Shown here piece by piece: positions 17,993-40,535 of a stretch of 42,185 nucleotides of DNA. This stretch comes from Hyphomicrobiaceae bacterium (GTDB lineage Bacteria > Pseudomonadota > Alphaproteobacteria > Rhizobiales > Hyphomicrobiaceae). Position numbers and translations under genes: made by a program. The stretch covers positions 1 through 42,185 of the forward strand of contig JBFWQN010000001.1 in the NCBI GenBank assembly GCA_050249405.1, given 5' to 3'. How positions within the stretch are numbered: the first letter of the stretch is position 1; each line of letters opens with the position of its first letter. The notes under the pieces are model-generated. The model searched no databases, was not told where the DNA came from, and saw nothing but the letters and a program-made list of their open reading frames with translations.

Positions 17993-18220
17993 TTATTGCC
18001 AGTTGATCTTCCGGTGGCGAATGCGCGCCCGGATCATCAAGACCGCCTTCGGCGTTGTGAAGCGTTTTCCGCTGTGCCGAAAATTGCGATCCGTCTTAAG
18101 CGGAATCATGCGTTTGTCGCAGACTGGTATCCACGGCCAATCACGTATCGCGCGCCCTGGCCACACTTTGAGGCGGTAAGCTTTCCCCCGACTGCGCACT
18201 AGTGGCTCCCCTATTCCCAT
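17993..18220 (-). CDS. Possible small basic protein downstream of the resolvase-like gene
   Basis: 75-aa ORF rich in R/K/W (MGIGEPLVRSRGKAYRLKVWPGR...RIRHRKINWQ). Its ATG overlaps the upstream stop by 10 nt, and the third-position GC bias is acceptable. No homology recognised. Confidence 0.3.
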   Translation of the reverse strand: MGIGEPLVRSRGKAYRLKVWPGRAIRDWPWIPVCDKRMIPLKTDRNFRHSGKRFTTPKAVLMIRARIRHRKINWQ

Positions 18221-18798
18221 TTGGCCGTTGTCCGGCCGCCCCACTCGCGATAGCACCTGTCTTGCGACCATCCAATCTCGCGCAACGCCTCGATCAGGCG
18301 ATCTCCGCTAAGGTTCAGGCTCGTGTAAATCTCGAATGCACGCCGTCGAATTTCGGGCGCGAACTGTACGGCGACACCGCCGCCCTTGCGCCCATTCTTT
18401 CTAGCCAGCGCTCGCGATGGCGCGTGCTGCCGGCGCGTGATCTGCTCGATGGCGTCCTCGATGGCAAGGTCGCGCTCGGCAAGAACCGTTGATCTGCGGC
18501 CGGTTGTTGTCTCGATCCACGAGCCGCGCGCCTCGATGTCGTGCACGCACCGCCACAAAAACTCGCGGCGATTGTCGGCCCGGCTCATGCGGAACGGCGG
18601 CATCAAATGCAGATGCCGGATAACGACCTCGTTACCCTGCCGCACGTGGTCAAGGAACGCGACCCAATCGGCCCACGTCGGCCCGACGTCGATCACGCGC
18701 GCGCAGCCGAACGCTTCGAGCTCGACGCGCTGAAGCTGAGCCGGATGCCGGGGCATCTCTCGGACTAGACCGATGAGTGTCTTTGATGACCGAACCAT
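18211..18798 (-). CDS. Serine-recombinase (resolvase/invertase)-like protein with C-terminal HTH; catalytic residues apparently lost
   Basis: The layout matches small resolvases: beta1 LIGLVRE, then EAFGC, then GRKGGG plus an HTH (LSGDRLIEALREIGWSQDRCYR). The position of the Ser nucleophile aligns with Met. The first ATG is 18798; codon 18813 is a GTG lying inside the putative -10. Confidence 0.7.
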   Translation of the reverse strand: MVRSSKTLIGLVREMPRHPAQLQRVELEAFGCARVIDVGPTWADWVAFLDHVRQGNEVVIRHLHLMPPFRMSRADNRREFLWRCVHDIEARGSWIETTTGRRSTVLAERDLAIEDAIEQITRRQHAPSRALARKNGRKGGGVAVQFAPEIRRRAFEIYTSLNLSGDRLIEALREIGWSQDRCYREWGGRTTAKWE

Positions 18799-18804
18799 GC
18801 AAAA

Positions 18805-18833
18805 GCCATACACTGGCGTTGCAAAGGTGGCAA
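18805..18833 (-). promoter_or_regulatory. Putative leftward promoter giving a leaderless transcript of the resolvase-like gene
   Basis: On the minus strand the sequence reads TTGCCA-N17-TATGGC, and the A of ATG 18798 is the 7th nt after the -10 hexamer. Confidence 0.4.
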
Positions 18834-18847
18834 GCGTGGGCTATGTT
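18819..18847 (+). promoter_or_regulatory. Putative rightward sigma70-type promoter for the small-gene cluster
   Basis: TTGCAA (18819-18824), a 17-nt spacer, then TATGTT (18842-18847). It overlaps the leftward promoter, and the two -35 boxes form the imperfect palindrome TTGCAAAGGTGGCAA. Confidence 0.5.
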
Positions 18848-18889
18848 CACATCAGCCACCGGACGGGGATTGCGATCGTGAGACGTCGA

Positions 18890-19063
18890 ATGCCGCTGTT
18901 TGCTGAGGCGAGATGGGCCATTGCATGCTGGATGCTCGGCTGCATCTTGCGCCTGACCGAGCGCGAGGCGAGCGATGAGGCTATCGAAGCGATCGGCAAT
19001 CTCGCTGAGCGGCTGAAGCCCGACCCGAAGCACGAAACCGAGTGGATGAGAAAACGCCAATAG
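18890..19063 (+). CDS. Hypothetical small protein (first gene of the rightward cluster)
   Basis: 57 aa from ATG 18890. GTG 18878 is an alternative start. It lies downstream of the putative promoter. Confidence 0.4.
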   Translation: MPLFAEARWAIACWMLGCILRLTEREASDEAIEAIGNLAERLKPDPKHETEWMRKRQ

Positions 19064-19074
19064 GGGCCCGGACG

Positions 19075-19305
19075 ATGGCGGATGCGGAAACCGATGATGA
19101 TGCGATGGCTCGACGGATAGTCGAGAGCGCGAACGAACTGGCGCGGTCTTTTTATAGGATGGCCGGCTACGTCGTGGCCGAAGAATACCGCTTCGACAAG
19201 GCAACGCATCCACAGGAGCGCCTATGCTGGCAGATGGCGTGCAAGGCGTATGAGTTCATCGACGGAACCAGCCCAGAAGATGCCCTTTCGGAAATTGACA
19301 ATTGA
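19075..19305 (+). CDS. Hypothetical small acidic protein
   Basis: 76 aa. ATG preceded by AGGGGCCCGGACG, a weak version of the junction motif. Confidence 0.55.
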   Translation: MADAETDDDAMARRIVESANELARSFYRMAGYVVAEEYRFDKATHPQERLCWQMACKAYEFIDGTSPEDALSEIDN

Positions 19306-19319
19306 GGCCCCGGATTCCG

Positions 19320-19493
19320 ATGCAATATCGCGGCTACGAGATAACGCAGGAGCAGTGGGACGGCGAGGTCGTGATATGGGTCGAGACCGCTGACGGCCCG
19401 TTCGATGTGCCGACCTTAGATCGCGCCAAGGAGTACATCGACGCCATGATCGAGGAAGACGCAGAGATGGCGGATCAGCCGGCTGCTCGGTAG
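19320..19493 (+). CDS. Hypothetical small protein
   Basis: 57 aa. ATG preceded by TTGAGGCCCCGGATTCCG. TTG 19302 is an alternative start. Confidence 0.5.
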   Translation: MQYRGYEITQEQWDGEVVIWVETADGPFDVPTLDRAKEYIDAMIEEDAEMADQPAAR

Positions 19494-19498
19494 CTCCA

Positions 19499-19517
19499 GC
19501 ACTTACCAAAGAGGCCC
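19499..19517 (+). repeat. Junction motif GCACTTACCAAAGAGGCCC (copy)
   Basis: Identical 17-nt core ACTTACCAAAGAGGCCC also occurs at 19881-19897 and 21177-21193. It lies 6 nt before ATGAGC at 19524. Confidence 0.8.
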
Positions 19518-19523
19518 AGAACC

Positions 19524-19880
19524 ATGAGCACGACGTTGCCAGAACTGCGAGCGATGCAGGCCATAGCAGATGCTGTGACTGATCTCTCGGACGATGAGGT
19601 GGCGCGCGTGGCCCGTTGGTTTTCGGATTATGCGGGCCGTAATGCCGGCGGGCAAACCGGACGCGGTATATCAAACAAGTGGCGTAGCGTGCTGACGACG
19701 ATGATGGCGGGCGAGATGGACATAGACGCCATCCAGCGCGCCGCGACAGAGGCCGGCGAAAGGCTGACACGCAATCAAGCGCGCGCGCAGTTGCACAACT
19801 ACGTCAACGCCGGATGGGTCGAGAGACTGGATGAAGGACGGTACGCGATCACAGATCGCGGGCGCGAGATGGTAGCGTAA
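19524..19880 (+). CDS. Putative winged-helix DNA-binding protein
   Basis: 118 aa. The C-terminus LTRNQARAQLHNYVNAGWVERLDEGRYAITDRGREMV looks like a wHTH recognition helix plus wing. Confidence 0.6.
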   Translation: MSTTLPELRAMQAIADAVTDLSDDEVARVARWFSDYAGRNAGGQTGRGISNKWRSVLTTMMAGEMDIDAIQRAATEAGERLTRNQARAQLHNYVNAGWVERLDEGRYAITDRGREMVA

Positions 19881-19897
19881 ACTTACCAAAGAGGCCC
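19881..19897 (+). repeat. Junction motif ACTTACCAAAGAGGCCC (copy)
   Basis: Starts directly after the TAA stop of the upstream gene. It lies 6 nt before TTGAGC at 19904. Confidence 0.8.
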
Positions 19898-19903
19898 ACG
19901 CCA

Positions 19904-20359
19904 TTGAGCATTGCAGTCCCATACGAAACGGCCACAAGCGGGGCTAGGGCGCGAGAGGAGATTACGTCTCTTCTGCGGCGCATGGGCTGCGAGGAGGTCG
20001 GCTTCATGGACGACTTCAACAGGAACGAAGTGCTTCTCGCGTTTCGCCACCGAGGTCGCCCTGTGCAGCTTCGTGCATCGGCAAACGGCTGGGCGGCGAT
20101 GTACCTGAAGGCTCACCCGTACAGCTCCAGGACGCGGGGCACACGGGCAGCCTACGAAGCCAAGGCGCTACGACAAGGGTTGCTTGCCGTGAACTCGATA
20201 TTGCGCGATTGGGTCAAGGGGCAGGTTGTTGCCGTCGAGTGTGGGATGATGTCGTTTGAGGCTGTGTTTTTGCCGCACATGATCGCTGCGGACGGCCGAT
20301 CCCTGATTGAGCACGTGGCCGATCGGAAGATGCTGCCGCCGCCGACCGACTCGCACTGA
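19904..20359 (+). CDS. Hypothetical protein
   Basis: 151 aa. The TTG start sits at exactly the same register relative to the junction motif as the ATG of the 19524 and 21199 genes. Confidence 0.55.
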   Translation: MSIAVPYETATSGARAREEITSLLRRMGCEEVGFMDDFNRNEVLLAFRHRGRPVQLRASANGWAAMYLKAHPYSSRTRGTRAAYEAKALRQGLLAVNSILRDWVKGQVVAVECGMMSFEAVFLPHMIAADGRSLIEHVADRKMLPPPTDSH

Positions 20360-20387
20360 GAACGGATCACCAGCAAAGGCCCAGATC

Positions 20388-20630
20388 ATGGACGAATGGC
20401 AGCCGATTGAGACCTTGCCGCCCACAGGGCAAGTGCTCGTGACCGACGACGACCCGGACGATGGGGATAGTTACGGCACCATTGAGCTGTGCCGGTGCCC
20501 GATGCTTCCTGACGGCAGACTGCTCAACCAGAACAGCGGGAACTTCTCGCGACCGCATGTGTGGAAATGGTGGCGTCCTACGCCGCCGCGCCGGTTTGCC
20601 AATGTCCAGCGGCAAGCATCGGTTGACTAG
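20388..20630 (+). CDS. Hypothetical protein, DUF551-like (weak)
   Basis: 80 aa. The N-terminal WQPIETLPPTGQVLV resembles the W.PI...LP signature of DUF551 phage proteins. AAAGGCCC lies upstream. Confidence 0.5.
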   Translation: MDEWQPIETLPPTGQVLVTDDDPDDGDSYGTIELCRCPMLPDGRLLNQNSGNFSRPHVWKWWRPTPPRRFANVQRQASVD

Positions 20631-20649
20631 ACAAAGAGGCCCCCCGGAC

Positions 20650-20883
20650 ATGAGCGTAGTCGATGAATGCCGAGATTGCCCAACAATCATCCGAGAGCGT
20701 GACGAGGCGCAGGATTGGGCGGACGATCTGGCCGATTTGATCGCCGCGATAACGGGGACTGACATCGGCGAGCATTCCAACCTGAACAACCCGTGGGAAA
20801 GAGCCGTCGAGGCGGCTGAAGCCTACCTTAAGCAACGCACAGAAAGGCCCCGGACGTTGGGCGCGGAGAGGACAGAGAGATGA
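20650..20883 (+). CDS. Hypothetical small protein
   Basis: 77 aa. ATGAGC preceded by CAAAGAGGCCCCCCGGAC. Confidence 0.55.
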   Translation: MSVVDECRDCPTIIRERDEAQDWADDLADLIAAITGTDIGEHSNLNNPWERAVEAAEAYLKQRTERPRTLGAERTER

Positions 20884-21107
20884 CAGAGCCATTTTACATC
20901 TGGCAAAGCGCCGAACAGATGACCGGTGACGAGAGAGCCGCATGGTTTGACAAGTGTGCAGCCGAAGCAAAGGCCGAAGGTGCTAAGCACGCGCGATTCT
21001 CGGTGCACCCAACAAACGGATGGGTTTTAGTGGAGGCATGGAAAGAGCGACCAATAGCAGACGGGGCATTGCAGGAGGGAGACCCACGTTGGCAGGTCGC
21101 GCCATAA
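20880..21107 (+). CDS. Hypothetical small protein
   Basis: 75 aa. ATGA overlap with the upstream stop, and a GGAGAGGACAGAGAG RBS region. Confidence 0.55.
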   Translation: MTEPFYIWQSAEQMTGDERAAWFDKCAAEAKAEGAKHARFSVHPTNGWVLVEAWKERPIADGALQEGDPRWQVAP

Positions 21108-21174
21108 CGCGCCGCATTCACGGTTCACTGGCGAGCATCCTCAGGGATGCTCTGGCCGGAAAACAGTAGGATCT

Positions 21175-21193
21175 GCACTTACCAAAGAGGCCC
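21175..21193 (+). repeat. Junction motif GCACTTACCAAAGAGGCCC (copy)
   Basis: Lies 5 nt before ATGAGC at 21199. It is preceded by the perfect 8-bp hairpin GAGCATCC-tcag-GGATGCTC (21133-21152). Confidence 0.8.
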
Positions 21194-21198
21194 CGGAC

Positions 21199-21675
21199 AT
21201 GAGCATGCGCTATCCACGGCTTGCGATGTTGCGCGCACGGCGGCAACGCTGGGAGAACGAACTGGCGGCGCCACATCGAGCGGCGGCGGGTCGTGCACTC
21301 CAGGTGGCACGCGAAGAGCGCGCCGCACGGGAGGGGCTGGAGCGCATTATGCGATCGTCTGTAGCTCCAGCGATCATGGACCACATGGCACGCGACATGG
21401 GGCGCGGCTTCTACGGCGAGATAATGAAAGCCATGAGAGGCATCTCCGCGTTATCCGGGACGACGACCATTACCGTTCCGACCGGCATGCTGATGGGTGC
21501 CGACCGAGAATCGATCGTTTTTCGCGTCGTGGACTGGTGGCGGTCCGAGAACGTGCCGCGCATGTCTTTTCGAGCCATCAGGGGAGAGATGGAGCACCGA
21601 GACGCGGTGACGGTCATCGAGGTGCAAGTGCCTGAGCTGCGCTACAGGCATCGCGTTGCCGATCTTTCGTTCTGA
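21199..21675 (+). CDS. Hypothetical protein
   Basis: 158 aa, last gene of the small-gene cluster. Confidence 0.6.
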   Translation: MSMRYPRLAMLRARRQRWENELAAPHRAAAGRALQVAREERAAREGLERIMRSSVAPAIMDHMARDMGRGFYGEIMKAMRGISALSGTTTITVPTGMLMGADRESIVFRVVDWWRSENVPRMSFRAIRGEMEHRDAVTVIEVQVPELRYRHRVADLSF

Positions 21676-21680
21676 TCGAG

Positions 21681-21697
21681 ACTTGTCAAAAAGGCCC
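21681..21697 (+). repeat. Degenerate orphan junction motif ACTTGTCAAAAAGGCCC
   Basis: Same register as the intact copies, but the start position reads ATTAGTTAA and no ORF follows. Confidence 0.6.
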
Positions 21698-21743
21698 AGC
21701 CCATTAGTTAATCACTTGGTTTGCAAATTAGTGTAAACAAAGC

Positions 21744-21778
21744 GGGCCGGCGGGGTGTTGGAAGCACCGCGCCGGCCC
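21744..21778. terminator. Strong GC-rich hairpin (14-bp stem with one mismatch, 7-nt loop)
   Basis: GGGCCGGCGGGGTG-ttggaag-CACCGCGCCGGCCC. Only TT follows on the plus strand, while GCTTTGTTTAC follows on the minus strand. It sits between the small-gene cluster and the 21814 gene. Confidence 0.4.
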
Positions 21779-21813
21779 TTGAACATCCCCAGAGACGACC
21801 TGGAGACGAACCG

Positions 21814-22779
21814 ATGTCCGCTTATCACCGCGCCAATGCCGGCGCAATTGCCATGGGCACGCTGTGTGCCTGCCTGGCCGGAGCCGTGCTCGCAGAGAGC
21901 GCCTGGCGCACCGGACCCACCATCGGCCACGCGCTGTCGATCGGCGCGCTGCTCATCACCATCGCCGCCGGGCACATGGCCGTCACGGCGCTGCGCCAGT
22001 GGCACGTGCTGCGCGCGGCCGGCCTCGCGCTCGTTTTCCTGGTCGGCGTCACCTACACCGTGGTCGGCACCGCCGGCCGCACGGCCGAGCAGCAGCAGGC
22101 GGCGATCGCCGCGGTGGACGGCCGGGCCGCCGACCGCGGCCGCGTCGAGGGCGAGCGCGCCCGCATCGTCAAGCTGCGGGGCGAGGCCGAGGCCATGCTC
22201 GAGAAGGTGCGCGGCGAGCACCTGGCCGAGTGCAAGGGCGGCGCCGGCAAGCGCTGCGCAGGCCTCGCCCAGTCGATCAACGTCTACGAGGCGGCGGTGA
22301 CGGGCCGCAGCGCCGAGCTGGCCGCGATCGACCGGCGGCTGTCGGGCCTCGGGGCCGCGGCGCCAGCCAACGGCGATCTGGTCGCCTTCGCCGATCTGCT
22401 CGGCGCCGTGGCGGGCATGGAGCGCGACGACACGGTGCGCCGCCTCACGGTGGCGTGGCCCTACGTGCTGCCGCTGCTGCTCGAGCTGGGCAGCATCATC
22501 TTCTGGAGCATCGGGCTGGCGTCCGCGGTGGCGCCTTCGGTTGCCCACGTGGCAACCGGCGCGCCGATCCAGACGGAGCCGGCGCCGAGCGTGCCGCCGA
22601 AGGGGCCGCGGCGGCGGAAGCTCGCCGAGGTGCAGGCGGAGCGCAACGCCAAGCTCGGCTCCTTCACCGAGGCCTACGTGGCGCGGCACGGGAGGCACCC
22701 TTCGGCCGGCGAGCTCGGCCACGGCTGCGGCGTGCCGAAGACCAGCGCCTGGCGATGGCAGCAATCCAGCGCCGCCTGA
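21814..22779 (+). CDS. Membrane protein with coiled-coil region and C-terminal HTH-like domain
   Basis: ATG 21814 with GGAG 8 nt upstream. Three N-terminal hydrophobic helices, a long Ala/Arg/Glu-rich region, a fourth hydrophobic helix (VAWPYVLPLLLELGSIIFWSIGLA), then SFTEAYVARHGRHPSAGELGHGCGVPKTSAWRW. Confidence 0.65.
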   Translation: MSAYHRANAGAIAMGTLCACLAGAVLAESAWRTGPTIGHALSIGALLITIAAGHMAVTALRQWHVLRAAGLALVFLVGVTYTVVGTAGRTAEQQQAAIAAVDGRAADRGRVEGERARIVKLRGEAEAMLEKVRGEHLAECKGGAGKRCAGLAQSINVYEAAVTGRSAELAAIDRRLSGLGAAAPANGDLVAFADLLGAVAGMERDDTVRRLTVAWPYVLPLLLELGSIIFWSIGLASAVAPSVAHVATGAPIQTEPAPSVPPKGPRRRKLAEVQAERNAKLGSFTEAYVARHGRHPSAGELGHGCGVPKTSAWRWQQSSAA

Positions 22780-22787
22780 CCCGCCAA

Positions 22788-22822
22788 CGGCCGCCCCCGG
22801 GCGGCCGCTTCATTTTCGCTTT
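22788..22822 (+). terminator. Rho-independent terminator
   Basis: CGGCCGCC-cccg-GGCGGCCG followed by CTTCATTTTCGCTTT. It lies at the convergence point with the minus-strand gene ending at 22810. Confidence 0.65.
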
Positions 22823-23049
22823 GATCTTGAGACGTAAGATCCAAGATGAGCGCAAATAATAGACACCAGAAGTCCGCCAAACAACACGCCGGGCCGCAAT
22901 GGATAAGTCGTTGGAGCGTCCAGCCATAAATAGACGCTGCCAAATAGGCCGAAGCCGCATACCAGAACAACTGCCGACCAAGGAGTAAATGGATTAGCCG
23001 TGCCGTACAAATACGATGCCAACCCGACAATGATCAGTTCGTAAATCAC
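22810..23049 (-). CDS. Small integral membrane protein (3 predicted TM helices)
   Basis: 79 aa, low G+C. Its GTG start overlaps the stop of the RHH gene (GTGA). Confidence 0.7.
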   Translation of the reverse strand: MIYELIIVGLASYLYGTANPFTPWSAVVLVCGFGLFGSVYLWLDAPTTYPLRPGVLFGGLLVSIICAHLGSYVSRSKRK

Positions 23050-23198
23050 CTTTGATCGCCGCCACTAATCGCTACATGGCGCTCCAAAACAAGCGTGATG
23101 TACGCCGCCAGCTTACGGTGATCAGCATCGGCCAATGCCTGAAGCTTGTCGCGAAGCTCCGCCGGGATCCGCACCGTGATCTGGATGTCCTTCTTCAT
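23046..23198 (-). CDS. Ribbon-helix-helix (Arc/Mnt/CopG-type) DNA-binding protein
   Basis: Not in the ORF track (50 aa). Hand translation: MKKDIQITVRIPAELRDKLQALADADHRKLAAYITLVLERHVAISGGDQR. The N-terminal beta-strand followed by two helices is typical of RHH repressors. Confidence 0.7.
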   Translation of the reverse strand: MKKDIQITVRIPAELRDKLQALADADHRKLAAYITLVLERHVAISGGDQR

Positions 23199-23212
23199 GA
23201 CATGCGTTGTCG

Positions 23213-23273
23213 GTCAATGAATGTTGACGTGCAACCTTGAACATGACAGTCAATGACAGTCAACGCCAGTCAT
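23213..23273. promoter_or_regulatory. Operator-like repeat cluster in the divergent RHH / antirepressor intergenic region
   Basis: Palindrome GTCAA-tgaatg-TTGAC (23213-23228). Tandem 10-bp repeats TGACAGTCAA (23244-23253, 23254-23263) plus a degenerate third copy CGCCAGTCAT (23264-23273). The inverted CTGTCA at 23282 overlaps the Bro start. Confidence 0.6.
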
Positions 23274-23286
23274 TGCGAGCCCTGTC

Positions 23287-24120
23287 ATGCGTGAAGCGGT
23301 CGAGAATTTAGCGTTCGAGGGCCACCTTGTGAGGGTGGCTCGTCGGGACGGAGAGCCCTGGTTCGTCGGCAAAGACGTCTGCGCAGCCCTCGATTTGCGC
23401 AATCACAACGACGCGCTGGGGAAGTTGGACGCCGACGAGCGAGCTGAGGTCGCTATCTCCGACCCCAGCGGCACGAAGCGGGCTGTGGCAATCAGCGAGC
23501 CGGGCGTCTATCGTCTCACCTTCTCTTCCAGGAAGCCCGAGGCGGAGCGCTTCAAGCGCTGGCTGGCGCACGACGTGCTGCCGGCGCTGCGCCGGACGGG
23601 CCGTTACGAGGCACAGGCGGTGGCGCCGGCCGCGCCGCAGCCGGCCGACGCGGTGCCGGAGAGCGCGATCTACCGCCTGAACCTGGTTCGCGAGGCGCGG
23701 CTGCTGTTCGGGCACGAGCGGGCGCGCTGCCTCTGGCGCCACCTCGGCCTGCCGCCGGTACCGCCCGCCCCGCCGACCGAGCGCGACGACGCGGCGCAAT
23801 GCCTGCGCCACCTGCTCGATGCGCCCGCGCATGAGGGTGGACCGCCGATCCGCAACCTGCTCGAGGCGGCGCTCGACGACGACGAGACGGCCCGGGCCAT
23901 GCTGATCGGCGCCGGCATCCGGCCGCTGCCCGACCGCGACGCCTTCACGGTGTCGAACCAGCACCCGCGCCTCGCCGCGATCTTCGCCGGCACCGACTGG
24001 CTCGGCCGGCACGGCCGCGTGATCCGCCGCCTGGCGGGCATCGCCGTCGCCGGCCCGACGCGCATCGGCGGCCTGCAGCGGCGCGGCTCTCTCGTGCCCG
24101 CCGCGATGCTCGAGGTGTAG
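23287..24120 (+). CDS. Bro-N domain protein (prophage antirepressor family)
   Basis: N-terminus F.GHLVRVARRDGEPWFVGKDVCAALDL...ISEPGVYRLTFSSRKPEAERFKRWLAHDVLPALRRTGRY matches the Bro-N signature. 277 aa, no SD sequence. Confidence 0.8.
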   Translation: MREAVENLAFEGHLVRVARRDGEPWFVGKDVCAALDLRNHNDALGKLDADERAEVAISDPSGTKRAVAISEPGVYRLTFSSRKPEAERFKRWLAHDVLPALRRTGRYEAQAVAPAAPQPADAVPESAIYRLNLVREARLLFGHERARCLWRHLGLPPVPPAPPTERDDAAQCLRHLLDAPAHEGGPPIRNLLEAALDDDETARAMLIGAGIRPLPDRDAFTVSNQHPRLAAIFAGTDWLGRHGRVIRRLAGIAVAGPTRIGGLQRRGSLVPAAMLEV

Positions 24121-24136
24121 CAGGGCCGTCCCGCCC

Positions 24137-24212
24137 CACGCGCCGGTTGCCATGTGGGCAACCGAAGGCGCAACGCAAAAGGTGCGCCCTCGCGACGCGG
24201 CCTAGTTTCGGC
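24137..24212 (+). promoter_or_regulatory. Composite conserved leader: copy 2 of the 36-nt hairpin element plus copy 2 of the AAAAGGTGCGC...TAGT element
   Basis: 24137-24172 matches 15092-15127 at 32/36 positions and contains the perfect hairpin CGGTTGCC-atgtg-GGCAACCG. 24174-24187 is identical to 4995-5008 (CGCAAAAGGTGCGC), followed by similar GCGACGC and (C/A)TAGT(T/C)TCG blocks. Confidence 0.55.
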
Positions 24213-32837: not shown

Positions 32838-32913
<76 letters not shown>

Positions 32914-33103: not shown

Positions 33104-33673
33104 CTACTTTTTTTGCATCCGCAGGGGCGCGGCCAACCTCACCCCGCGACAGAGCCGCGGCGCGCGGCGCAGGAAATCGGCGGCGCGGATGCCGCGGATC
33201 GGATGCCGCCATCTCGGAGCGACCTCCGCCAGGGGCACGAGGACGAAACCTCGAGCGGTCATCTCCGGATGCGGCAGCACGAGCCCGGATCGCTTGCGCG
33301 GGCCAGCGGAACGGCCGACGCGGGCGCCCTTGAAATCGAGTATGTCGATGTCGAGCGGGCGAGCACTCCAATGTCCGTTTGGCCGGCGGCCGGCGTGCCG
33401 CTCGAGGCGCTTCAGCAGGCGAAGCAGCGCTGCGGGCGCAATCGAGCCTTCGATGCCGATGACGGCGTTGCTATAGCGGGGCTGGCGCGGCCCGCCGAGC
33501 GGCTCGGTCAGGTAGAGCGACGAGCACGCGACGACCCTGAGACCGGCCCGTTCGATTTGGTCGATCGCGCGACGCAGCGTTGCCGGCGGCTCTCCCCAGC
33601 AGCCGCGCTCGTTGGCGCCGAGCGAGCACCAGACGAGGCGCTGTGGTTGGCGACGGCCCACGCGGTTCTCCAT
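33104..33673 (-). CDS. folK: 2-amino-4-hydroxy-6-hydroxymethyldihydropteridine diphosphokinase (HPPK)
   Basis: SLGAN...SSLYLTEPLGGPRQPRYSNAV...LLRLLKRLERHAGR...WSARPLDIDILDF......LVLPHPEMTARGFVLVPLAEVAP matches the HPPK signature. Start chosen at ATG 33673. Confidence 0.8.
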   Translation of the reverse strand: MENRVGRRQPQRLVWCSLGANERGCWGEPPATLRRAIDQIERAGLRVVACSSLYLTEPLGGPRQPRYSNAVIGIEGSIAPAALLRLLKRLERHAGRRPNGHWSARPLDIDILDFKGARVGRSAGPRKRSGLVLPHPEMTARGFVLVPLAEVAPRWRHPIRGIRAADFLRRAPRLCRGVRLAAPLRMQKK

Positions 33674-33869: not shown

Positions 33870-34508
33870 ATGTTCTTCTATCCGACCGAGAGAATCGCCC
33901 TGTTTATCGACGGCGCCAACCTTTACGCGACGGCGAAGGCTTTGGGCTTCGACATCGATTACAAGCGCTTACTGGGAATCTTCCGCACCAAGGGCCGACT
34001 TGTACGGGCCCTTTACTATACGGCGCTCGCCGAGGATCAGGAATACTCTTCGATCCGGCCACTGATCGACTGGCTCGATTACAACGGCTACACGATGGTT
34101 ACAAAGCCGACCAAAGAGTATACGGACTCGTCCGGTCGGAGGAAAATCAAGGGAAACATGGACATCGAGCTCTCCGTCGATGCCATGGAGCTCGCCGATC
34201 ATCTCGATCATATCGTGTTGTTCTCGGGCGACGGAGACTTCCGCTCGCTGGTTGCCGCCTTGCAGCACAAGGGCCTGCGCGTGAGCGTCGCCTCGACGCT
34301 GCAGACGCAGCCACCGATGGTCGCGGACGAGTTGCGCCGGCAAGCCGACCAATTCATCGATCTCGCGGACTTGGAAAAAGACATTTGCCGCGATCCATCG
34401 GCCCGTATTCCGCGCGAGACGCGCGAGACGCGCCTGCAGCAAATTCGCACCCAGCAGCAGCGTGGCCTCGAGCGCGAGCCGTTCCCTAACGACGACATCG
34501 ACGTCTGA
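33870..34508 (+). CDS. NYN-domain (LabA/DUF88-like) protein
   Basis: RIALFIDGANLY...YYTA......LIDWLDYNGYTMVTKP...KGNMDIELSVDAMELADHLDHIVLFSGDGDFRSLVAALQHKGLRVSV is the typical NYN/LabA pattern. Confidence 0.8.
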   Translation: MFFYPTERIALFIDGANLYATAKALGFDIDYKRLLGIFRTKGRLVRALYYTALAEDQEYSSIRPLIDWLDYNGYTMVTKPTKEYTDSSGRRKIKGNMDIELSVDAMELADHLDHIVLFSGDGDFRSLVAALQHKGLRVSVASTLQTQPPMVADELRRQADQFIDLADLEKDICRDPSARIPRETRETRLQQIRTQQQRGLEREPFPNDDIDV

Positions 34509-34778
34509 CTCTGACCGGGCACCGATTGCGATAGCCAGGCGCTGCACACGTTCCAGACTTGCGGGCGATCACTCGGCTTTTGAGCCGACGCTGCGGGCAT
34601 CGGCCAGATCGTTGCCGGTGAGGCCAAGGCAACCTATGTTGCCAAGATCGGCCCCACCATGCTGACCGAGTGAAAGCAGCCATTCGGAAATTGCCGAGGC
34701 GCAGCTTCCGCCCGGGGCCGAGGCGCCACGGAGCGAGATTCGAGCCGGGCCGTGTCCAAGTCAGTGGGGACCAACCGC

Positions 34779-35432
34779 ATGCCCGAGACCGACGATCGCC
34801 ACTTCATCTATTTTGCCGATCCCATGTGCTCGTGGTGCTACGGCTTCGCGCCCGTCGTGGAGCAGCTCGCGGCCCACTTCGACGGACGTCTGCCCGTGCG
34901 CATCGTGATGGGCGGGCTGCGTGCGGGAAACCGGCAGCCGATGCGTGAAAAGGACCGCGACTACATTCGTGGCGCCTGGAAGAATGTGGCCGAGGCGTCC
35001 GGGCAACCGTTCGATCACGCATTCTTCGATCGCGAGACGTTCACCTACGACACCGAGCCCGCCTGCAGAGCCGTGGTGGCCATGCGCAGGCTGGCACCCG
35101 GTCAGGCGCTCGCGTTCAATCGGCGCGTGTCCGCATCGTTCTATGCCTCCAACCGCGACGTGACCGACGACGAGGTGCTGGCCGATATCGGCGCCGAGGC
35201 CGGCATCGAGCGAGCCTGCTTTCTCGCCGAGCTCCAGAGCGAGGCGTGCCGGAACGAGACGTTCGGCGACTTCCTGATGGCCAAGCAATCGGGCGTCGAG
35301 GGGTTTCCGCTTCTCGCGGCCGGCAACGAGCGAACGGGCTACGCGCTCGTCACCCACGGCTTCCGGCCGATCGACGGACTGATCGAGGCGATCGACGACT
35401 GGCTGGCCAAGGGCGCCCCTGTGACGCAATAA
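34779..35432 (+). CDS. DsbA-family thioredoxin-fold protein
   Basis: FIYFADPMCSWCYGF contains a CxxC motif within a DsbA-like context. 217 aa from ATG 34779. GTG 34752 is an alternative start. Confidence 0.7.
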   Translation: MPETDDRHFIYFADPMCSWCYGFAPVVEQLAAHFDGRLPVRIVMGGLRAGNRQPMREKDRDYIRGAWKNVAEASGQPFDHAFFDRETFTYDTEPACRAVVAMRRLAPGQALAFNRRVSASFYASNRDVTDDEVLADIGAEAGIERACFLAELQSEACRNETFGDFLMAKQSGVEGFPLLAAGNERTGYALVTHGFRPIDGLIEAIDDWLAKGAPVTQ

Positions 35433-35568
35433 CGTCCGTCGACGACCGCAGCTGGCCCTCGAGCCACGTGGCGGCTAGATAACCCATTGCCTCGATCTGG
35501 ATCGAACGACCCATCGGGGATTTGGCGAGCCGGTCGCGAGATGCGGGCGGCCGAAGCCATCCGACTCC

Positions 35569-37584
35569 ATGGATCCGGGGAGTAAGGCGCTGGAAAGCCG
35601 CTACAGGGTCGCCCTCGAGGCAACGCAGATCGGCATCTGGACATGGTGCCGGTCGACCGGCTTCATCGTGTGGGACGAGCAGGCGTCCGCCATCGCCGGC
35701 ATCGGTCCAGAAGCGCGGCTCGAGCTGCTCGACTGGGAGTCGCTCGCACACGAGGACGACCGGGTGAAGGTCCGCGACGCCTTTGCCGCGGCGCTCGACC
35801 CCGCCGGCGAGGGCAGGCTCACCATCGAGGCACGCTTCATTCGCCAGTCCGACAGGATGGAGCGCTGGCTGTCACTCTACGGCCGCTGCGAGTTCCATGA
35901 TGGAGCGCTCGACCGGCTCTGCGCAGCCGTCCGCGACAACACCCTCAGCCGCAGCATCGAGGCCGAGACGGATCGCATCGAGGCGCGTCTCGCGGCCATC
36001 GTGTCGATCGCGGCCGACGCCATCATCTCGCTCGACGGCGAGCAGCGCATCACGCTTTTCAACGCCGGTGCCGAGCAGATGTTCGGCCATGTGCGGCACG
36101 AGGTGATCGGGCAGAGGCTCGATGTGCTGCTGCCCGAGCGCTATCGCGACGCGCACGCGCATCACGTGCGCCGGTTCGGGCAGGTGGGCAATGTCGCCCG
36201 CTCGATGGGGCAGCGAGCCGAGATCTTCGCGCGCCGGAAGAACGGCGAGGAGTTTCCGGCCGATGCCTCGATCTCGCATATCGAGGTCGGCGGCGAGCGC
36301 ATCTATACGGTTGTGCTGCGTGACGTCTCCGAGAGAAAACGCGCGCTGGACCAACTCGTCATGAGCCAGAGCGAGCTCGAGGCGCGCGTGGCGGAGCGGA
36401 CCGCCGAGCTGCAGGCCGAGATGAGACGGCGCGAGGAGACGCAGGCACAGCTCGTGCGCACCCAGCGCATGGAGGCCTTCGGCCAGCTGACCGGCGGCAT
36501 CGCGCACGACTTCAATAATCTGCTCACGGTGATCACCGGCAACCTGGAGTTGCTCGAGATGCGGCTCGAGGAGGACCGGTCCCTGGCTCTCCTCAAACGT
36601 GCCCACGATGCAGCCGAGATGGGCGCGAGGCTCACCTCCCGCCTGCTCACGTTCGCCCGGCGTCGCCAGTTCTCGCCGGCCCCGCTCAATCTGAATGAGC
36701 AGGTGATGGGCATGGTGGACCTGCTGCGCCGGACCCTCGGCGAGGACGTGGACCTCAATGCGCGGCTGGCACCCCGCCTCTGGACCGTGCGAGCCGATCC
36801 GAGCGAGGTGGAGAACGCGGTGCTCAACCTCGCCATCAACGCGCGCGACGCGATGCCGAAAGGCGGCCGCCTTGTGATCGAGACGGCGAACGTGACTGCC
36901 GAGGAGGGCCAGATCGGAACCATCGATCGCCTCAGCTCCGGCGCCTATGTCCGGCTGTCTGTCTCGGATACGGGGACCGGCATGAGCCCCGACGTGTTGG
37001 CGCACGCTTTCGAGCCGTTCTACACGACCAAGCAGCCGGGCAATGGCACGGGGCTGGGGCTCAGCACCATCTACGGATTCGCCCAGCAGAGCGGCGGCAC
37101 GGCGACCATCTATTCCGAGCAGGGCCTCGGCACGACGGTGAACATCTATCTGCCGAGGGCCGATGAGGGCGCCGCGCAGCAGGCGCCGGTCCGCAATGGC
37201 GAGCTGGCGGTGTCGGCCGGCGAGAGTGTGCTCCTCGTCGAGGACAACGCCGAGGTCCGCGAGGTGACGCGCCTCCGGCTCGAGGGCCTCGGCTACAGGG
37301 TGGTCGAGGCCGAGAACGGTGCTATGGCGCTGGCGCTTCTGAGCGAGGTCAATGGTGTCGACATCGTTTTCAGCGACGTCGTCATGGGCGGCGGCTTGTC
37401 CGGTTTCGACGTCGCACGCGAGGTCCGGGCACGCTGGCCGCAGACTCGCGTGCTGCTGACGTCCGGCTACCCCGACGACATCCTGCGCGAGCAGGAGCCA
37501 GCGCTGCACGAGTTGCGGATACTCAGAAAGCCATATAGCCGGGCCGAGCTGGCAACCACCCTGCGCGAGATCCTGGACGCCTGA
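35569..37584 (+). CDS. PAS-domain hybrid sensor histidine kinase / response regulator
   Basis: Two PAS-like regions, an H-box (GGIAHDFNNLLTVI), N and G boxes (NLAINARDAM, DTGTGM, GTGLGLS), and a C-terminal receiver (VLLVEDN...FSDVVM...LTSGY). Confidence 0.85.
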   Translation: MDPGSKALESRYRVALEATQIGIWTWCRSTGFIVWDEQASAIAGIGPEARLELLDWESLAHEDDRVKVRDAFAAALDPAGEGRLTIEARFIRQSDRMERWLSLYGRCEFHDGALDRLCAAVRDNTLSRSIEAETDRIEARLAAIVSIAADAIISLDGEQRITLFNAGAEQMFGHVRHEVIGQRLDVLLPERYRDAHAHHVRRFGQVGNVARSMGQRAEIFARRKNGEEFPADASISHIEVGGERIYTVVLRDVSERKRALDQLVMSQSELEARVAERTAELQAEMRRREETQAQLVRTQRMEAFGQLTGGIAHDFNNLLTVITGNLELLEMRLEEDRSLALLKRAHDAAEMGARLTSRLLTFARRRQFSPAPLNLNEQVMGMVDLLRRTLGEDVDLNARLAPRLWTVRADPSEVENAVLNLAINARDAMPKGGRLVIETANVTAEEGQIGTIDRLSSGAYVRLSVSDTGTGMSPDVLAHAFEPFYTTKQPGNGTGLGLSTIYGFAQQSGGTATIYSEQGLGTTVNIYLPRADEGAAQQAPVRNGELAVSAGESVLLVEDNAEVREVTRLRLEGLGYRVVEAENGAMALALLSEVNGVDIVFSDVVMGGGLSGFDVAREVRARWPQTRVLLTSGYPDDILREQEPALHELRILRKPYSRAELATTLREILDA

Positions 37585-37699
37585 CAGCCTTTGCTCGCGC
37601 CGGACGGCCGTCGCACCATTCGCTGGCCGCCATGACGCGCATGCGACCCCGCTTGCGGGGCCGATTATCGCACCCGCCCACTGCTCCCCCGGCAGGCGA

Positions 37700-38356
37700 T
37701 CAGCCCATCGCCTTGCGGTGCATCCGCTCGGTCCAGTCCATGGTCAGGTTCTGGAAGAGCCAGCGGCTGCGCTCCTTGAGCCGCCGGTAGGCCGCTCGCA
37801 TGTCGAGCACCAGGGTAATGCGGCGGCTGCGGCTCCTGAGCTCGCCCACATCATGGGTCGCAATCGGCGTGAAGCCGATGACGCGCGTGTGGAAGCCGTA
37901 AGGGCTGTGCGGATCGTCCTCGAACACGTCGGTCACGAGATGCGTGTAGCCCCGCGCCATGATCTCGGCGAAGGCCGCCCGCATCAGGCTCGTCGCGACC
38001 GAGAAGCGGCCCCGGCGCTTGGCCACCACGGCGAAGCGCCCCACCTCGGCGATGCGAGAGCCGGCGAGCAGCTCGTCGACCTTGAATGACGGGTCGATCA
38101 ATTTGAGGCTGTACTTGGCGTACTGCTCGATCGGCGGATCGAACAGGATACGCAGCACGCCGACCGGCTCCTGGCCCATCGTGGTCACGAACCACGCAAT
38201 GTCGTCGCACGCGAGGTCCGTGATCGGAATCTGGCTTTCCGGCTCGACGATCCAACCCTTCTCGCGGGCGTAGGTCTGTCGCAGAACCTCGATGACCTGC
38301 TCACGCTCGGCCTCGCTGGTCACTCGGCGCGTGATCGCGTGCTCATGGCGTCCCAT
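37700..38356 (-). CDS. GNAT-fold N-acyltransferase (N-acyl amino acid synthase / OlsB-like)
   Basis: IAEVGRFAVVAKRRGRFSVATSLMRAAFAEIMARGYTHLVTDVFEDD is typical of acyl-ACP-dependent N-acyltransferases. The start is uncertain (ATG 38356, or the upstream start codon at 38407). Confidence 0.6.
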   Translation of the reverse strand: MGRHEHAITRRVTSEAEREQVIEVLRQTYAREKGWIVEPESQIPITDLACDDIAWFVTTMGQEPVGVLRILFDPPIEQYAKYSLKLIDPSFKVDELLAGSRIAEVGRFAVVAKRRGRFSVATSLMRAAFAEIMARGYTHLVTDVFEDDPHSPYGFHTRVIGFTPIATHDVGELRSRSRRITLVLDMRAAYRRLKERSRWLFQNLTMDWTERMHRKAMG

Positions 38357-39143
38357 GACGAGGCTCCTGTGGCAGAGGCTCCCAGGACTTTCCCGAGAGC
38401 CGGGCAATCTCAGTCATCATCGTGGCATGCCAGGCGCGCACCTCGCGCGCCGCGACGGGGGCCGCCGACAGCTTGGCCGGAGGCCGGATCGGTGCGCCGA
38501 ACGTGACGTCCAGCATCGGCCGGCGCTCGCCGGAAATGAGGCGGATGCCGGCTGGAACGATCGGCGCACCCGATTCGAGCGAGAGGCGAGCCGCGCCGTA
38601 GCGTCCGCGCATGAGACGCGCGGGATCGCGATTGACGGTGCCTTCGGGAAAAATGCCGATGCTGCGTCCGGCCTCGAGATGCGCCAGCGCCCGCTCGTGC
38701 GACGGCTCGGACGGCGCGTACAGCGGCTTCAGCGCGTTGAGAAAGCGCGGTCGAGCCGACTTGCGCATGACGACGATTGCCCCCGAGCGGCGATACAGCA
38801 AGCCTATGCCTGGAATCATCTGGAAATTCCAGTCGGCCAGGAAGTGCACGCGACGACCGCCACGATGATACATCAGCAGCGCTGGCAACGCCACCGCCTC
38901 CAGGCGCGATGCATGATTGAAAGCGAGCACGAACGGATCGCGATCGGACGAAATGTGCTCGATGCCGCGAACCGCCGCGAAACGGTGCAGCATCAGGGCA
39001 GCGGCTGTGCGCGCGATCGTGCGGTCGAGGAGGCGGCCGAGACCAGGAAGAGGGTGGCGCATGATCTCGCGCACGCCGGGGCAGCGCCACGGCGGACAGT
39101 CCATGACGTCGCTGAACCGACCGTCGGAATCGGCCAGTGCCAT
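38343..39143 (-). CDS. PlsC-family (lysophospholipid/1-acyl-glycerol-3-phosphate-type) acyltransferase
   Basis: Motifs AFNHASRLE (NHxxxxD/E type) and IFPEGTVNRD (FPEGT). The start is uncertain. It overlaps the downstream GNAT gene. Confidence 0.65.
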   Translation of the reverse strand: MALADSDGRFSDVMDCPPWRCPGVREIMRHPLPGLGRLLDRTIARTAAALMLHRFAAVRGIEHISSDRDPFVLAFNHASRLEAVALPALLMYHRGGRRVHFLADWNFQMIPGIGLLYRRSGAIVVMRKSARPRFLNALKPLYAPSEPSHERALAHLEAGRSIGIFPEGTVNRDPARLMRGRYGAARLSLESGAPIVPAGIRLISGERRPMLDVTFGAPIRPPAKLSAAPVAAREVRAWHATMMTEIARLSGKSWEPLPQEPRHGTP

Positions 39144-39280
39144 GTGCAGGCGTCTCCCCTCCCCAATCGACTCGAAAGCGAGCCGCAAGGGCTGTTCATT
39201 GCATACGATCTTCGCGACCAAACCGACCGGCGTCAACGCGGTGCGGTCGCCCCATTCCACCGCCTGAGGACGATCCGGGC

Positions 39281-39610
39281 TCAATTCGGCGCCGTCGTGC
39301 TCGGTGCATCCGACTTGTTCTTCCAGATCAGATGAATATTGCGGGCATAAATGAACAGCCCCATGCCTTGGCCGAGAACGAACACGGGGTCGGCGCGGTA
39401 GATCGCATAGGCAAACAGGAGAGCACCGCCGGCCACGGAGAAATACCAGAACACCTCCGGCACGATCGATCGCTTGGCCCGCTCGCTGGCGATCCATTGC
39501 AGGATGAAGCGCATCGAGAACAGCAATTGCGCCACGAAGCCGACCGACAGCCAGAGCAGCTCGGTCGTCGAGACGGAGGCCCACCATGCGGCGAGTCGGG
39601 CCATCGTCAT
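39281..39610 (-). CDS. Lipid-A-disaccharide-synthase N-terminal-domain (LAB_N) small membrane protein
   Basis: LWLSVGFVAQLLFSMRFILQWIASERAKRSIVPEVFWYFSVAGGALLFAYAIYRADPVFVLGQ is characteristic of LAB_N proteins. It lies downstream of a GT2 gene. Confidence 0.7.
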   Translation of the reverse strand: MTMARLAAWWASVSTTELLWLSVGFVAQLLFSMRFILQWIASERAKRSIVPEVFWYFSVAGGALLFAYAIYRADPVFVLGQGMGLFIYARNIHLIWKNKSDAPSTTAPN

Positions 39611-39725
39611 GTTGACCGCGCCCCGGGGTGGCCGCCTCGGCGACTGTGGACCTGCCCTCCCGTCGCGCACCGTGGCACCACGTCGCCGGCATCTCCTGCC
39701 AAGGGCATGTCGATCGTCTCCGCCT

Positions 39726-40535
39726 TCATGTCGCCTCGGTGGCGCTGGAGCGGCGCGAGGGCTCGGAGCGCCGCGTTTGACAAGTCATGCCGGCAACCTG
39801 CCGCCCGGCATCGCTGTCCTCGACGATCGGCGGCACCTTGGTACGCCGGCGGATCCAGGCGACGCCGAACAGATCATAGATGCCGACGAGCGCACGCCCG
39901 AGATTTGTGTATTTCGACTTGCCGGCCCGCCGAGGCCGATCGTTGACCGGCACATAGGCCACCTCGTGCCCGTAGGTGATGAACAATGCCGGCAGATAGC
40001 GGTGCATCGACGTGAAGAACGGCAGACGCAGGAACGCCTCCCGCCAGTAGACCTTGATGCCGCAACCGGTGTCGGGGCACTGGTCCTTCAGCACCCTGTC
40101 ACGCAGCCAGTTGGCGAAGCGCGAGGCGAGCCGCTTCGAGCCCTCCGCCTTCCGGTCGACCCGGATGCCCCCGACGAGAGCTGGTCCCTTGCCGCCCGGC
40201 GCCCCGAGACGCTCGAGCAGACGTGGAATATCGGCGGGATCGTTCTGGCCATCGCCGTCCAATGTGGCGATCACCGGGCTGGTCGCGGCGAGAATGCCCG
40301 TTCGCATGGCCGTGCTTTGCCCGCTGCGCTCGCCGTGACGCAGATAGCGCAGCCCCTGCAGCGCTCCCCGCTCGACGAGCGTCTTGACCTCGGAGCCAGT
40401 GGCATCCTCGCTGCAATCGTCGACGACGATCACCTCGGCGAGGATTGCGGGCGGAACGACTGCGTAGGCTTCCTCTACGAGGCGGCCGATGTTGCCCGCC
40501 TCGTTCAGCGCCGGAATGACGACCGTGACGCGCAT
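39726..40535 (-). CDS. Family 2 glycosyltransferase (polyprenyl-phosphate sugar synthase, ArnC/GtrB-like)
   Basis: VTVVIPALNEAGNI...VIVVDDCSEDAT...ATLDGDGQNDPADIP...CGIKVY are GT2 motifs. Start ATG 40535. Confidence 0.75.
   Translation of the reverse strand: MRVTVVIPALNEAGNIGRLVEEAYAVVPPAILAEVIVVDDCSEDATGSEVKTLVERGALQGLRYLRHGERSGQSTAMRTGILAATSPVIATLDGDGQNDPADIPRLLERLGAPGGKGPALVGGIRVDRKAEGSKRLASRFANWLRDRVLKDQCPDTGCGIKVYWREAFLRLPFFTSMHRYLPALFITYGHEVAYVPVNDRPRRAGKSKYTNLGRALVGIYDLFGVAWIRRRTKVPPIVEDSDAGRQVAGMTCQTRRSEPSRRSSATEAT

Follow-up and report, generated by a model that had tools for sequence, protein, structure and literature searches.

The window analysed here is a 42,185-bp stretch of DNA from a Hyphomicrobiaceae bacterium (GCA_050249405.1, contig JBFWQN010000001.1, positions 1 to 42,185), which comprises the right-hand 33 kb of a prophage and the host genes beyond it. 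Within the prophage, on the minus strand at 18211-18798, lies a gene for a 195-amino-acid (aa) protein that is a true homologue of the small serine recombinases (resolvases and invertases) but appears to be catalytically dead. This homologue has lost its nucleophile and the D-R..R block, its promoter region is bidirectional and conserved, and its start is predicted to be leaderless; from these features the best inference is that it regulates the divergent promoter by binding DNA there. The more specific proposal, to which we give about an even chance, is that the protein is a local repressor of its own promoter and of an accessory operon transcribed in the opposite direction, and not the primary immunity repressor of the prophage. 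The original prediction for this locus suggested that a recombinase fold had been recruited as a regulator at a divergent promoter, which the homology and the conserved promoter uphold, and that this regulator was the master lysogeny repressor, a part of the claim that the position of the gene in the late region speaks against.

Homology, predicted fold and catalytic residues

As a single sequence the protein gives no match in Pfam or NCBIfam even at an E value of 10, only noise in PHROGs, and no relative in a phmmer search of the PDB; a profile of four sequences likewise drew only noise from the PDB (TNF ligand, de novo TIM barrels). An exhaustive profile search retrieved 323 representative clusters at E<=1e-3, of which 93 stood at <=1e-10 and 14 at <=1e-30, most of them proteins of about 190 aa. 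An alignment of 84 family members (A3) was the basis of the family profile, the hhalign comparisons and the final AlphaFold2 model. With this profile the best match of known structure was the Gin invertase (3uj3/4m6f, E 1.5e-10), and gamma-delta resolvase (1zr2) was matched at E 1.4e-6, while hhalign aligned residues 7-189 of the family with the resolvase/invertase alignment at a probability of 99.5% (E 6.4e-23). The hidden Markov model (HMM) search with PF00239 that had been proposed as a check gave a divided answer: the protein itself falls below the curated Pfam threshold, and 22 of the 84 relatives reach PF00239 individually.

The structure prediction agrees with the sequence profile. AlphaFold2 with the 84-member alignment gave a model with a pLDDT of 93.6; an earlier model built from four sequences was mediocre (pLDDT 68.5), yet already pointed to Sin. 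In a Foldseek search with the final model the top 27 PDB matches were all serine recombinases, with probabilities at or near 1.00, including Sin, the gamma-delta and Tn3 resolvases (1zr2, 2gm5, 5cy1) and the catalytic domain of TP901-1, and the target-normalised TM-score reached 0.77 against the catalytic domain of gamma-delta resolvase (2gm5). A viral structure library led to the same serine-recombinase outcome, with a poxvirus OPG061 model among the weak matches at rank 36. Since the family profile, hhalign and the structural matches agree, we regard homology to the small serine recombinases as established on sequence comparison and modelled fold, and the resolvase/invertase layout that had been recognised by eye is thereby borne out. 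The parts of the gene are as follows.

18211..18798, minus: coding sequence of the resolvase-like protein, 195 aa, ATG start at 18798, stop codon included (open reading frame (ORF) list and sequence)
18484..18798, minus: degenerate catalytic-domain fold, residues 1-105 (AlphaFold2 secondary structure, TM-score, hhalign)
Residues, minus: catalytic-domain elements beta1 8-12, helix 20-30, beta2 34-37, helix 42-49 (AlphaFold2)
Residues, minus: further catalytic-domain elements beta3 57-60, helix 77-91, beta4 93-96 (AlphaFold2)
18754..18756, minus: codon of Met15, aligned with the nucleophile serine (S10 of gamma-delta resolvase, S9 of Gin; HMM alignment to Gin, hhalign)
18589..18615, minus: residues 62-70, H-L-H-L-M-P-P-F-R, in place of the K-L-D-R-L-G-R block (hhalign, family column counts)
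18388..18483, minus: equivalent of the E-helix, residues 106-137 (AlphaFold2 helices 106-123 and 129-137; gap in hhalign)
18214..18387, minus: glycine-rich arm GRKGGG and three-helix helix-turn-helix (HTH), residues 138-195 (hhalign, AlphaFold2, family columns 140-142)

The three HTH helices are modelled at residues 148-159, 165-174 and 179-186, and hhalign aligns residues 148-189 with the HTH of gamma-delta resolvase (from residue 148 to 182). Measured against that resolvase the E-helix is 7 residues shorter, and an 8-residue insertion (residues 69-76) follows beta3 and the degenerate LDRLGR block; the N-terminal loop is 4 residues longer than that of canonical enzymes. The arm of the family has the consensus G-G-R-P, for which this protein has G-G-G-V, without R-P. 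The residues kept by hhalign from gamma-delta resolvase are R8 (Arg13) and Q19 (Gln23). At the nucleophile position both hhalign and the HMM alignment to Gin replace S10 with Met15, and the residues that accompany it are lost as well, D67 to His64, R68 to Leu65 and R71 to Pro68. Further positions that have changed are Y6 (Leu11), D36 (Val38), R45 (Trp42) and D59 (Asn56). The by-eye alignment of the original prediction, in which the nucleophile serine fell on Met, the DRLGR block read HLMPPFR and only the first arginine (R8) was kept, is matched by hhalign. The suggestion that the N-terminal VRSS might be the true active site is improbable, since the SS pair is missing from the closest homologue (P0002) and S10 aligns to Met15. 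Without the serine nucleophile and the D67/R68/R71 triad, the protein is predicted to be a genuine but catalytically dead member of its superfamily.

This loss is not confined to one prophage. Columns were counted for 122 representatives that include the N-terminus, 92 of them with the 8-residue insertion (long-loop) and 30 without it (short-loop). Among the long-loop members Ser stands at the nucleophile column in 7/92 and Arg at the R68 column in 0/92, Asp is not among the common residues at the D67 column, and the nucleophile column is variable and mostly non-hydroxyl (H, L, V, M). The lower-scoring short-loop relatives have the Ser in 20/30 and R68 in 24/30, and these may be active enzymes. 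Judged by these columns, loss of the catalytic residues is a property of the whole long-loop clade. Other columns are strongly conserved, namely R13, R17, Q23, R53, G55, E96, T99, G100, R101, S/T103, G140, W/Y158, G176 and G187; none of these is catalytic, and the proteins are therefore under selection. Family members in annotated databases carry no Pfam domain and are named 'hypothetical', and they are separated by a score gap (at least 138 bits, against less than 70) from bona fide 'DNA invertase Pin-like' proteins. Our literature searches returned no description of this clade, and on serine-recombinase lineages without a nucleophile only a prediction for vaccinia F16 turned up. When the family alignments were used for pattern-based locus searches of GTDB species genomes, IMG/VR and JGI metagenomes, no relatives came up, and GenBank phages yielded a single distant homologue, in MW202785.

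The divergent promoter region and its conservation

The minus-strand ORF can be extended to an upstream GTG (18211..18813). The N-terminal strand that follows ATG 18798, I-G-x-x-R-E-M/K-P-R-H/Y-P, is kept in all three of the nearest homologues (P0002-P0004, with 57, 52 and 42% identity), and the upstream GTG is neither in frame nor conserved in the homologous loci L006 and L012; on these grounds ATG 18798 is the best start. Public gene calls for an identical sequence start instead at Met15, giving 181 aa (P0001, 18211-18756, minus), and place a 96-aa plus-strand ORF (18773-19063) over the intergenic promoter region, where it overlaps the true N-terminus. The 96-aa call is probably an artefact, and together with the truncation to 181 aa it looks like the product of a leaderless start. 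The first rightward gene probably begins at GTG 18878 or ATG 18890 and not at 18773. The gene itself is an intact ORF with a G+C content at third codon positions (GC3) of 0.75, and it is the sole minus-strand gene among the plus-strand late genes. Ahead of it lie these elements.

18805..18833, minus: leftward promoter-like element, TTGCCA at 18833-18828, N17, TATGGC at 18810-18805 (sequence)
18819..18847, plus: rightward promoter-like element, TTGCAA at 18819-18824, N17, TATGTT at 18842-18847 (sequence)
18819..18833, unstranded: imperfect palindrome TTGCAAAGGTGGCAA (TTGC-N7-GCAA) over both -35 boxes, a candidate operator (sequence; pattern also in L013)
18797..18824, minus: alternative 28-bp candidate site, TTGCAA-N16-TTGCAT, putatively covering the leftward -10 box and the start codon

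All four hexamers, their spacings and the overlap of the -35 boxes are found in the sequence where the original prediction had placed them, the two -35 boxes standing 3 bp apart inside TTGCAAAGGTGGCAA (18819-18833), and the A of ATG 18798 is the 7th nucleotide (nt) past the leftward -10 box. Such weak matches occur by chance at about 0.95 per kb per strand, and a pair of 8/12 matches on opposite strands within 60 bp is found in 0.57% of windows. The case that the promoter pair is real rests mainly on its conservation in homologous loci. L013, whose protein is 52% identical, reads AACATA-N17-TTGCAA and TTGCCA-N17-TATCAC-ATTTGC-ATG, and L006/L004 (42%) read AAGATA-N17-TTGCAA and TTGACT-N16-TACATT-GTGCAA-ATG. 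In L012 (57%) the boxes are better, TTGACG-N16-GATAAT, the ATG has become ACA, and the start lies 30 nt downstream behind a Shine-Dalgarno sequence, GAGG. Even the complete podovirus MW202785, with a homologue of 29% identity, retains AACATAG-N-CCACGC...TTGCAA. The rightward TTGCAA-N17-TATGTT (TATCTT in L006) is present in 5/5 compared loci, MW202785 included; the intergenic DNA is conserved among loci whose proteins are just 41-57% identical.

The start codon lies 7 nt past the -10 box in three of the four close loci, and in the window, L013 and L006 the ATG has no Shine-Dalgarno sequence ahead of it. Because the spacing between the ATG and the -10 box recurs in this way, a leaderless mRNA whose transcript starts at the A of ATG 18798 is a well-supported prediction, as had been proposed from the single sequence.

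The wider loci of the relatives resemble one another. All family genes recovered with enough flanking DNA belong to phage or prophage contexts, and most of them come first at a divergent junction that has variable small-gene arrays on either side; several have as a neighbour a tail spike, a tyrosine integrase (in L004, L008 and MW202785) or that end of the structural block where the ejection proteins are encoded. In L007 a separate divergent junction heads an ERF operon. One identical protein, the distant family member P0161, occurs on three contigs that share its upstream region but have different first genes on the opposite side (73, 94 and 63 aa); thus the regulator and its promoter form a conserved cassette with mosaic cargo. 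Upstream of P0161 are three palindromes, TTTTC(C/G)GAAAA, spaced 27 and 29 bp apart, of which the third overlaps the start codon (L007 4623-4689, L008 3530-3596, L009 9933-9999). They occur nowhere else in the three 13-15 kb P0161 loci and are operator-like in appearance, as would suit local control. The homologue in MW202785.1 (L016; 1272-1844), annotated as 'transposon gamma-delta resolvase', stands at a divergent junction between the integrase and the tail spike of a complete 40-kb podovirus genome. The early region of that genome encodes an 80-aa HTH_3 protein (33235-33477), and the unannotated gaps of MW202785 and L007 hold no recognisable cI-like gene.

Prophage setting and the proposed role of the protein

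The prophage part of the window begins with a 488-aa ORF where the large terminase subunit would be expected, followed by a T7-type portal (PF12236), capsid (PF19821), tail tube B (phrog_376) and three large internal-virion proteins (phrog_684, E 1.8e-162). The gene studied here and its cassette come next, followed by Ant and by three proteins of tail fibres or spikes, with a CHAP protein interspersed. This places the gene within the late region of an epsilon15/SPN1S-like prophage, with internal-virion genes on one side and tail-fibre genes on the other, and not between early operons. The structural block is collinear with that of the epsilon15-like Salmonella phage SPN1S, in which the integrase, recombination genes, HTH regulator and replication genes come after the tailspike and lysis genes; if this prophage follows the SPN1S order, its genes for early functions, replication and immunity would be situated to the left of the window. 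Related prophages in Hyphomicrobium, Opitutus and Rhodocyclaceae came to light when genomes were scanned with the terminase-position protein; their left flanks carry primase-like genes and a single small ORF of HTH-like appearance, too little to place the immunity region. There is no integrase and no active recombinase within the window. The features to the right of the gene are these.

18878..22779, plus: rightward operon of about ten small genes and a 352-aa membrane/coiled-coil protein (ORFs)
22788..22807, plus: intrinsic-terminator-like hairpin, 8 G-C pairs and a T-rich tail, closing the rightward operon
22810-23049, minus: hydrophobic ORF, 79 aa, overlapping the Arc-like ORF (ORF)
23046-23198, minus: Arc-like ribbon-helix-helix (RHH) ORF, 50 aa (Pfam Arc, 21.5 bits against a cut-off of 20.4)
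23287-24120, plus: Bro-N/Ant-type antirepressor gene (PHROG anti-repressor Ant, E 5.8e-42)
22528-22576 and 24126-24174, no strand: inverted repeats with 49-nt arms, 84% complementary (longest inverted repeat in 17.0-24.5 kb)

The proteins of the rightward operon have no informative Pfam or PHROG matches, and no replication, recombination or antitermination genes were recognised among them. No plus-strand terminator interrupts the operon before 22788. The cassette has a G+C content of 0.60-0.62, against 0.67-0.72 in its flanks, and is the only lower-GC stretch. Beyond the terminator the Arc-like and 79-aa ORFs diverge from ant just ahead of the tail-fibre genes (module 22810-24120). This is the arrangement of P22 immI at the map position of P22 immI, and its regulator is the Arc-like protein and not the resolvase-like one. 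We had also considered the latter as an equivalent of Mnt for ant; this was dropped, given the terminator at 22788-22807 before ant and the divergent Arc-like gene that ant has of its own.

The window has exactly three copies of the pattern TTGC-N7-GCAA, one at the promoter and one in the middle of each arm of the inverted repeats (expected 0.65; three were reached in 4/100 shuffles), and the promoter palindrome shares 12/15 bases with an arm centre. Each arm has as its core GCGCCTTCGGTTGCCCACGTGGCAACCGGCGCG, a 33-36-nt imperfect palindrome; the arm centres TTGCCCACGTGGCAA and TTGCCATGTGGGCAA both have the pattern and differ as CACGTG against CACATG. Enclosed between the two arms are the terminator, the 79-aa ORF, the Arc-like gene and ant, together with the 3' end of the 352-aa gene. 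The alternative site TTGCAA-N16-TTGCAT is unique in the window (expected 0.03), recurs in L013 (28 bp) and L012 (29 bp), and has the length of a resolvase dimer site. Apart from the partial likeness in the two distal repeats there is no further operator cluster within the 42 kb, and 14-mers of the upstream region had only chance-level matches in the window and four loci. Scans of metagenome and viral collections for the promoter and inverted-repeat motifs gave nothing save one apparently chance IMG/VR match without an adjacent family gene.

The role that seems most likely for the protein is a local one. It would bind, probably as a dimer, palindromic DNA in the divergent region of about 80 bp, at TTGC-N7-GCAA over both -35 boxes and/or at TTGCAA-N16-TTGCAT, the 28-bp site that spans the -10 box and start codon of its own gene. 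Once bound it would repress, in the quiescent prophage, both the promoter from which it is expressed and the small accessory genes of the 4-kb rightward operon, acting as the repressor half of Tn3/gamma-delta TnpR at res, without recombination. The protein would then be a local regulator of an accessory, moron-like cassette within the late region. Several observations weigh against this proposal. Its minor-groove arm has lost the R-P of the family. The conserved palindrome coincides with both -35 hexamers, and promoter constraint alone could explain the conservation; at 15 bp it is also rather small for a dimer of the resolvase type. Both promoters match the consensus at no more than 8/12 positions, TATGGC is without the usual T at position 6, and an automated promoter scan listed neither the leftward nor the rightward site. 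Nothing in the sequence tells repression from activation. The first genes on the divergent side are not conserved among the loci and have no Cro-like or RHH domain, so that a bistable switch would be speculative.

That the protein is instead the primary lysogeny repressor, of cI or C2 type, with the rightward small-gene operon as the lytic early operon, we consider unlikely. The overlapping divergent promoters and leaderless start do recall lambda cI at PRM, the gene is the only one oriented against the late genes, and the nearby Ant-type antirepressor implies some repressor as its target. Nor was an S24-type cI seen in the window or in the complete MW202785 genome, where only the 80-aa HTH_3 protein is found, and the nearby tyrosine integrases of L004, L008 and MW202785 could be read in the same sense. 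It is the setting that tells against the master-repressor claim of the original prediction: the gene lies between internal-virion and tail-fibre genes, whereas the HTH regulator, replication genes and integrase of SPN1S are elsewhere, and early and immunity genes would by that synteny lie left of the window. The divergent operon lacks replication, recombination and antitermination genes and ends at a terminator, its lower G+C content resembles acquired accessory DNA, no second operator cluster was seen in 42 kb, ant has its own Arc-like regulator, and in L007 the ERF operon is headed by a junction separate from that of the family gene. A LexA/S24-type autocleavage domain is missing as well (no S24 match, and a resolvase-like fold throughout), although not all primary repressors have one. 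A different reading, which we find slightly more doubtful, assigns the protein an architectural or regulatory part, without catalysis, in a system of site-specific recombination or in what is left of such a system; it would bind the inverted-repeat arms and the promoter palindrome, and strand exchange, if any, would depend on an active invertase supplied in trans. At res the accessory sites are occupied by catalytically silent resolvase dimers, the repeat pair is the longest in its region with arms that are palindromes like hix/gix-type sites, and the shared TTGC-N7-GCAA pattern links the arms to the promoter; moreover, the closest solved relative, Gin, is a phage tail-fibre invertase, and the Arc-Ant segment abuts a tail-fibre gene. 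However, the two arms are copies of each other, so that only one coincidence is independent, and the mismatch of their centres would block religation by a serine recombinase if the difference lay in the overlap. No active recombinase is present in the window, and no inverted variant of the Arc-Ant segment was found, the sole other assembly that spans it (L024) having the same orientation. The repeats, an element absent from IMG/VR, might just as well form RNA hairpins or mark the ends of a mobile cassette, as they might be binding sites, an invertible segment (relic or live) or coincidence. No Rfam family was found in 17.5-24.5 kb.

The boldest scenario joins these two ideas. The clade would have been exapted as operator-binding repressors, and the protein, as the immunity repressor or together with it, would bridge the three TTGC-N7-GCAA palindromes in a res-like, recombination-free synapse that locks the accessory operon and the antirepressor module in the lysogen; we think this improbable. 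A much smaller chance attaches to the idea that the protein is still an active recombinase with another nucleophile, such as Ser4/Ser5 or the conserved Ser/Thr103. Arg13 and Gln23 are kept, and a conserved polar cluster (R17, R53, E96, R101, S/T103) surrounds the old active site; but the nucleophile position of the clade is mostly non-hydroxyl, D67, R68 and R71 are all lost, the N-terminal SS is missing in P0002, and no paired crossover sites flank the gene. Hardly any weight is left for a decaying, functionless invertase pseudogene with chance promoter hexamers. The lack of a single-sequence domain match and the weakness of the promoter matches would suit it, against which stand an intact ORF, 323 representative relatives with many conserved columns, a high-confidence predicted fold, and promoter DNA conserved across diverged loci.

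Related systems and other features of the window

Local repression by a resolvase has a precedent, since tnpA and tnpR, transcribed divergently, are both repressed when resolvase occupies res (PMC7157771). Tn3/gamma-delta TnpR belongs to the same superfamily as the protein described here, with the same domain order of catalytic fold, E-helix, arm and C-terminal HTH, and its gene likewise lies at a divergent intergenic region that holds both promoters. Unlike TnpR, the prophage protein is without the serine and D67/R68/R71 and has the loop insertion, shortened E-helix and longer N-terminal loop described above. Its locus, in a prophage late region, has no three-subsite res and no transposase, and repression there is only inferred. 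The invertases Gin, Cin, Hin and Pin are of similar size, phage-borne and near tail-fibre genes, but they retain Ser9/10 as well as the DRLGR block and are found beside an invertible segment that has matched sites. The prophage protein has lost these residues, and its only candidate inverted repeats are 3.7 kb away, with mismatched centres and no inverted variant seen.

In immI of phage P22 a leftward regulator gene faces a rightward operon across overlapping divergent promoters. The map place of immI (mnt, arc and ant by the tailspike), between ejection or internal-virion genes and tail spike or fibres, is also that of the gene described here, which has Arc-like and Ant-like genes 4 kb to its right. 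Mnt and Arc, however, are RHH proteins whereas this one has a resolvase fold, and its operon ends at a terminator before ant, which has a divergent Arc-like gene of its own.

A recombinase fold without catalysis is known as a prophage repressor in MrpR (YopR), the master repressor of Bacillus prophage SPbeta, which acts purely by DNA binding (PMC10516654). MrpR recognises SPBRE, an element repeated throughout the SPbeta genome (PMC10516654), and its role in maintaining lysogeny is proven. Its fold is that of a tyrosine recombinase, unrelated to the serine-recombinase fold considered here, and our protein differs in having only a local candidate site and an inferred role. Vaccinia virus F16 (OPG061) is a viral homologue of serine recombinases for which a lack of catalytic activity is predicted (PMC11980589). 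Unlike the prophage protein it belongs to a eukaryotic virus, is targeted to the nucleolus and has no known operator, and the two show no close sequence relation.

Whole serine-recombinase lineages without a nucleophile have barely been described, and the present work delineates an unannotated clade of 323 representative clusters, most of them catalytically dead, whose examined loci lie at conserved divergent promoters heading variable arrays of small genes. If its members are indeed operator-binding regulators, the clade would be the serine-recombinase counterpart of MrpR and a case of TnpR-style repression outliving the loss of recombination. Clade proteins could then mark accessory-gene cassettes, possibly for counter-defence, in temperate podoviruses, and could yield compact new pairs of repressor and operator. 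For annotation, the clade genes are at present labelled 'hypothetical' or, wrongly, 'resolvase', and the one described here is truncated, with a spurious ORF over its promoter.

Other features of the window may be recorded briefly. The 488-aa ORF at its left end (18-1484), in the terminase large subunit position by comparison with SPN1S, has no Pfam or PHROG match; its relatives, at 49-67% identity, are in Hyphomicrobium, Opitutus and Rhodocyclaceae genomes or metagenome-assembled genomes. At the other end a tRNA-Lys (CTT) gene, 32838-32913 on the minus strand, has its 3' end toward the prophage and is likely to be the attachment site and right prophage end. The host genes beyond it (33870-41930) encode a protein with an NYN domain, a DsbA-like protein, a PAS/HisKA/receiver hybrid histidine kinase, a GNAT protein and a family-2 glycosyltransferase. 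Two independent assemblies of the same phage segment, L001 (GCA_043955535.1) and L003 (SRR27751815), both stop at about 21330-21365, and this shared end may reflect strain variation or a repeat. Within the rightward operon two near-identical short elements (GCTCA..GGGC CTCTTTGGTA) at 19514-19529 and 19894-19909 scored as minus-strand terminators; they sit just upstream of the plus-strand gene starts at 19524 and 19904 and are more likely a repeated ribosome-binding region than terminators.

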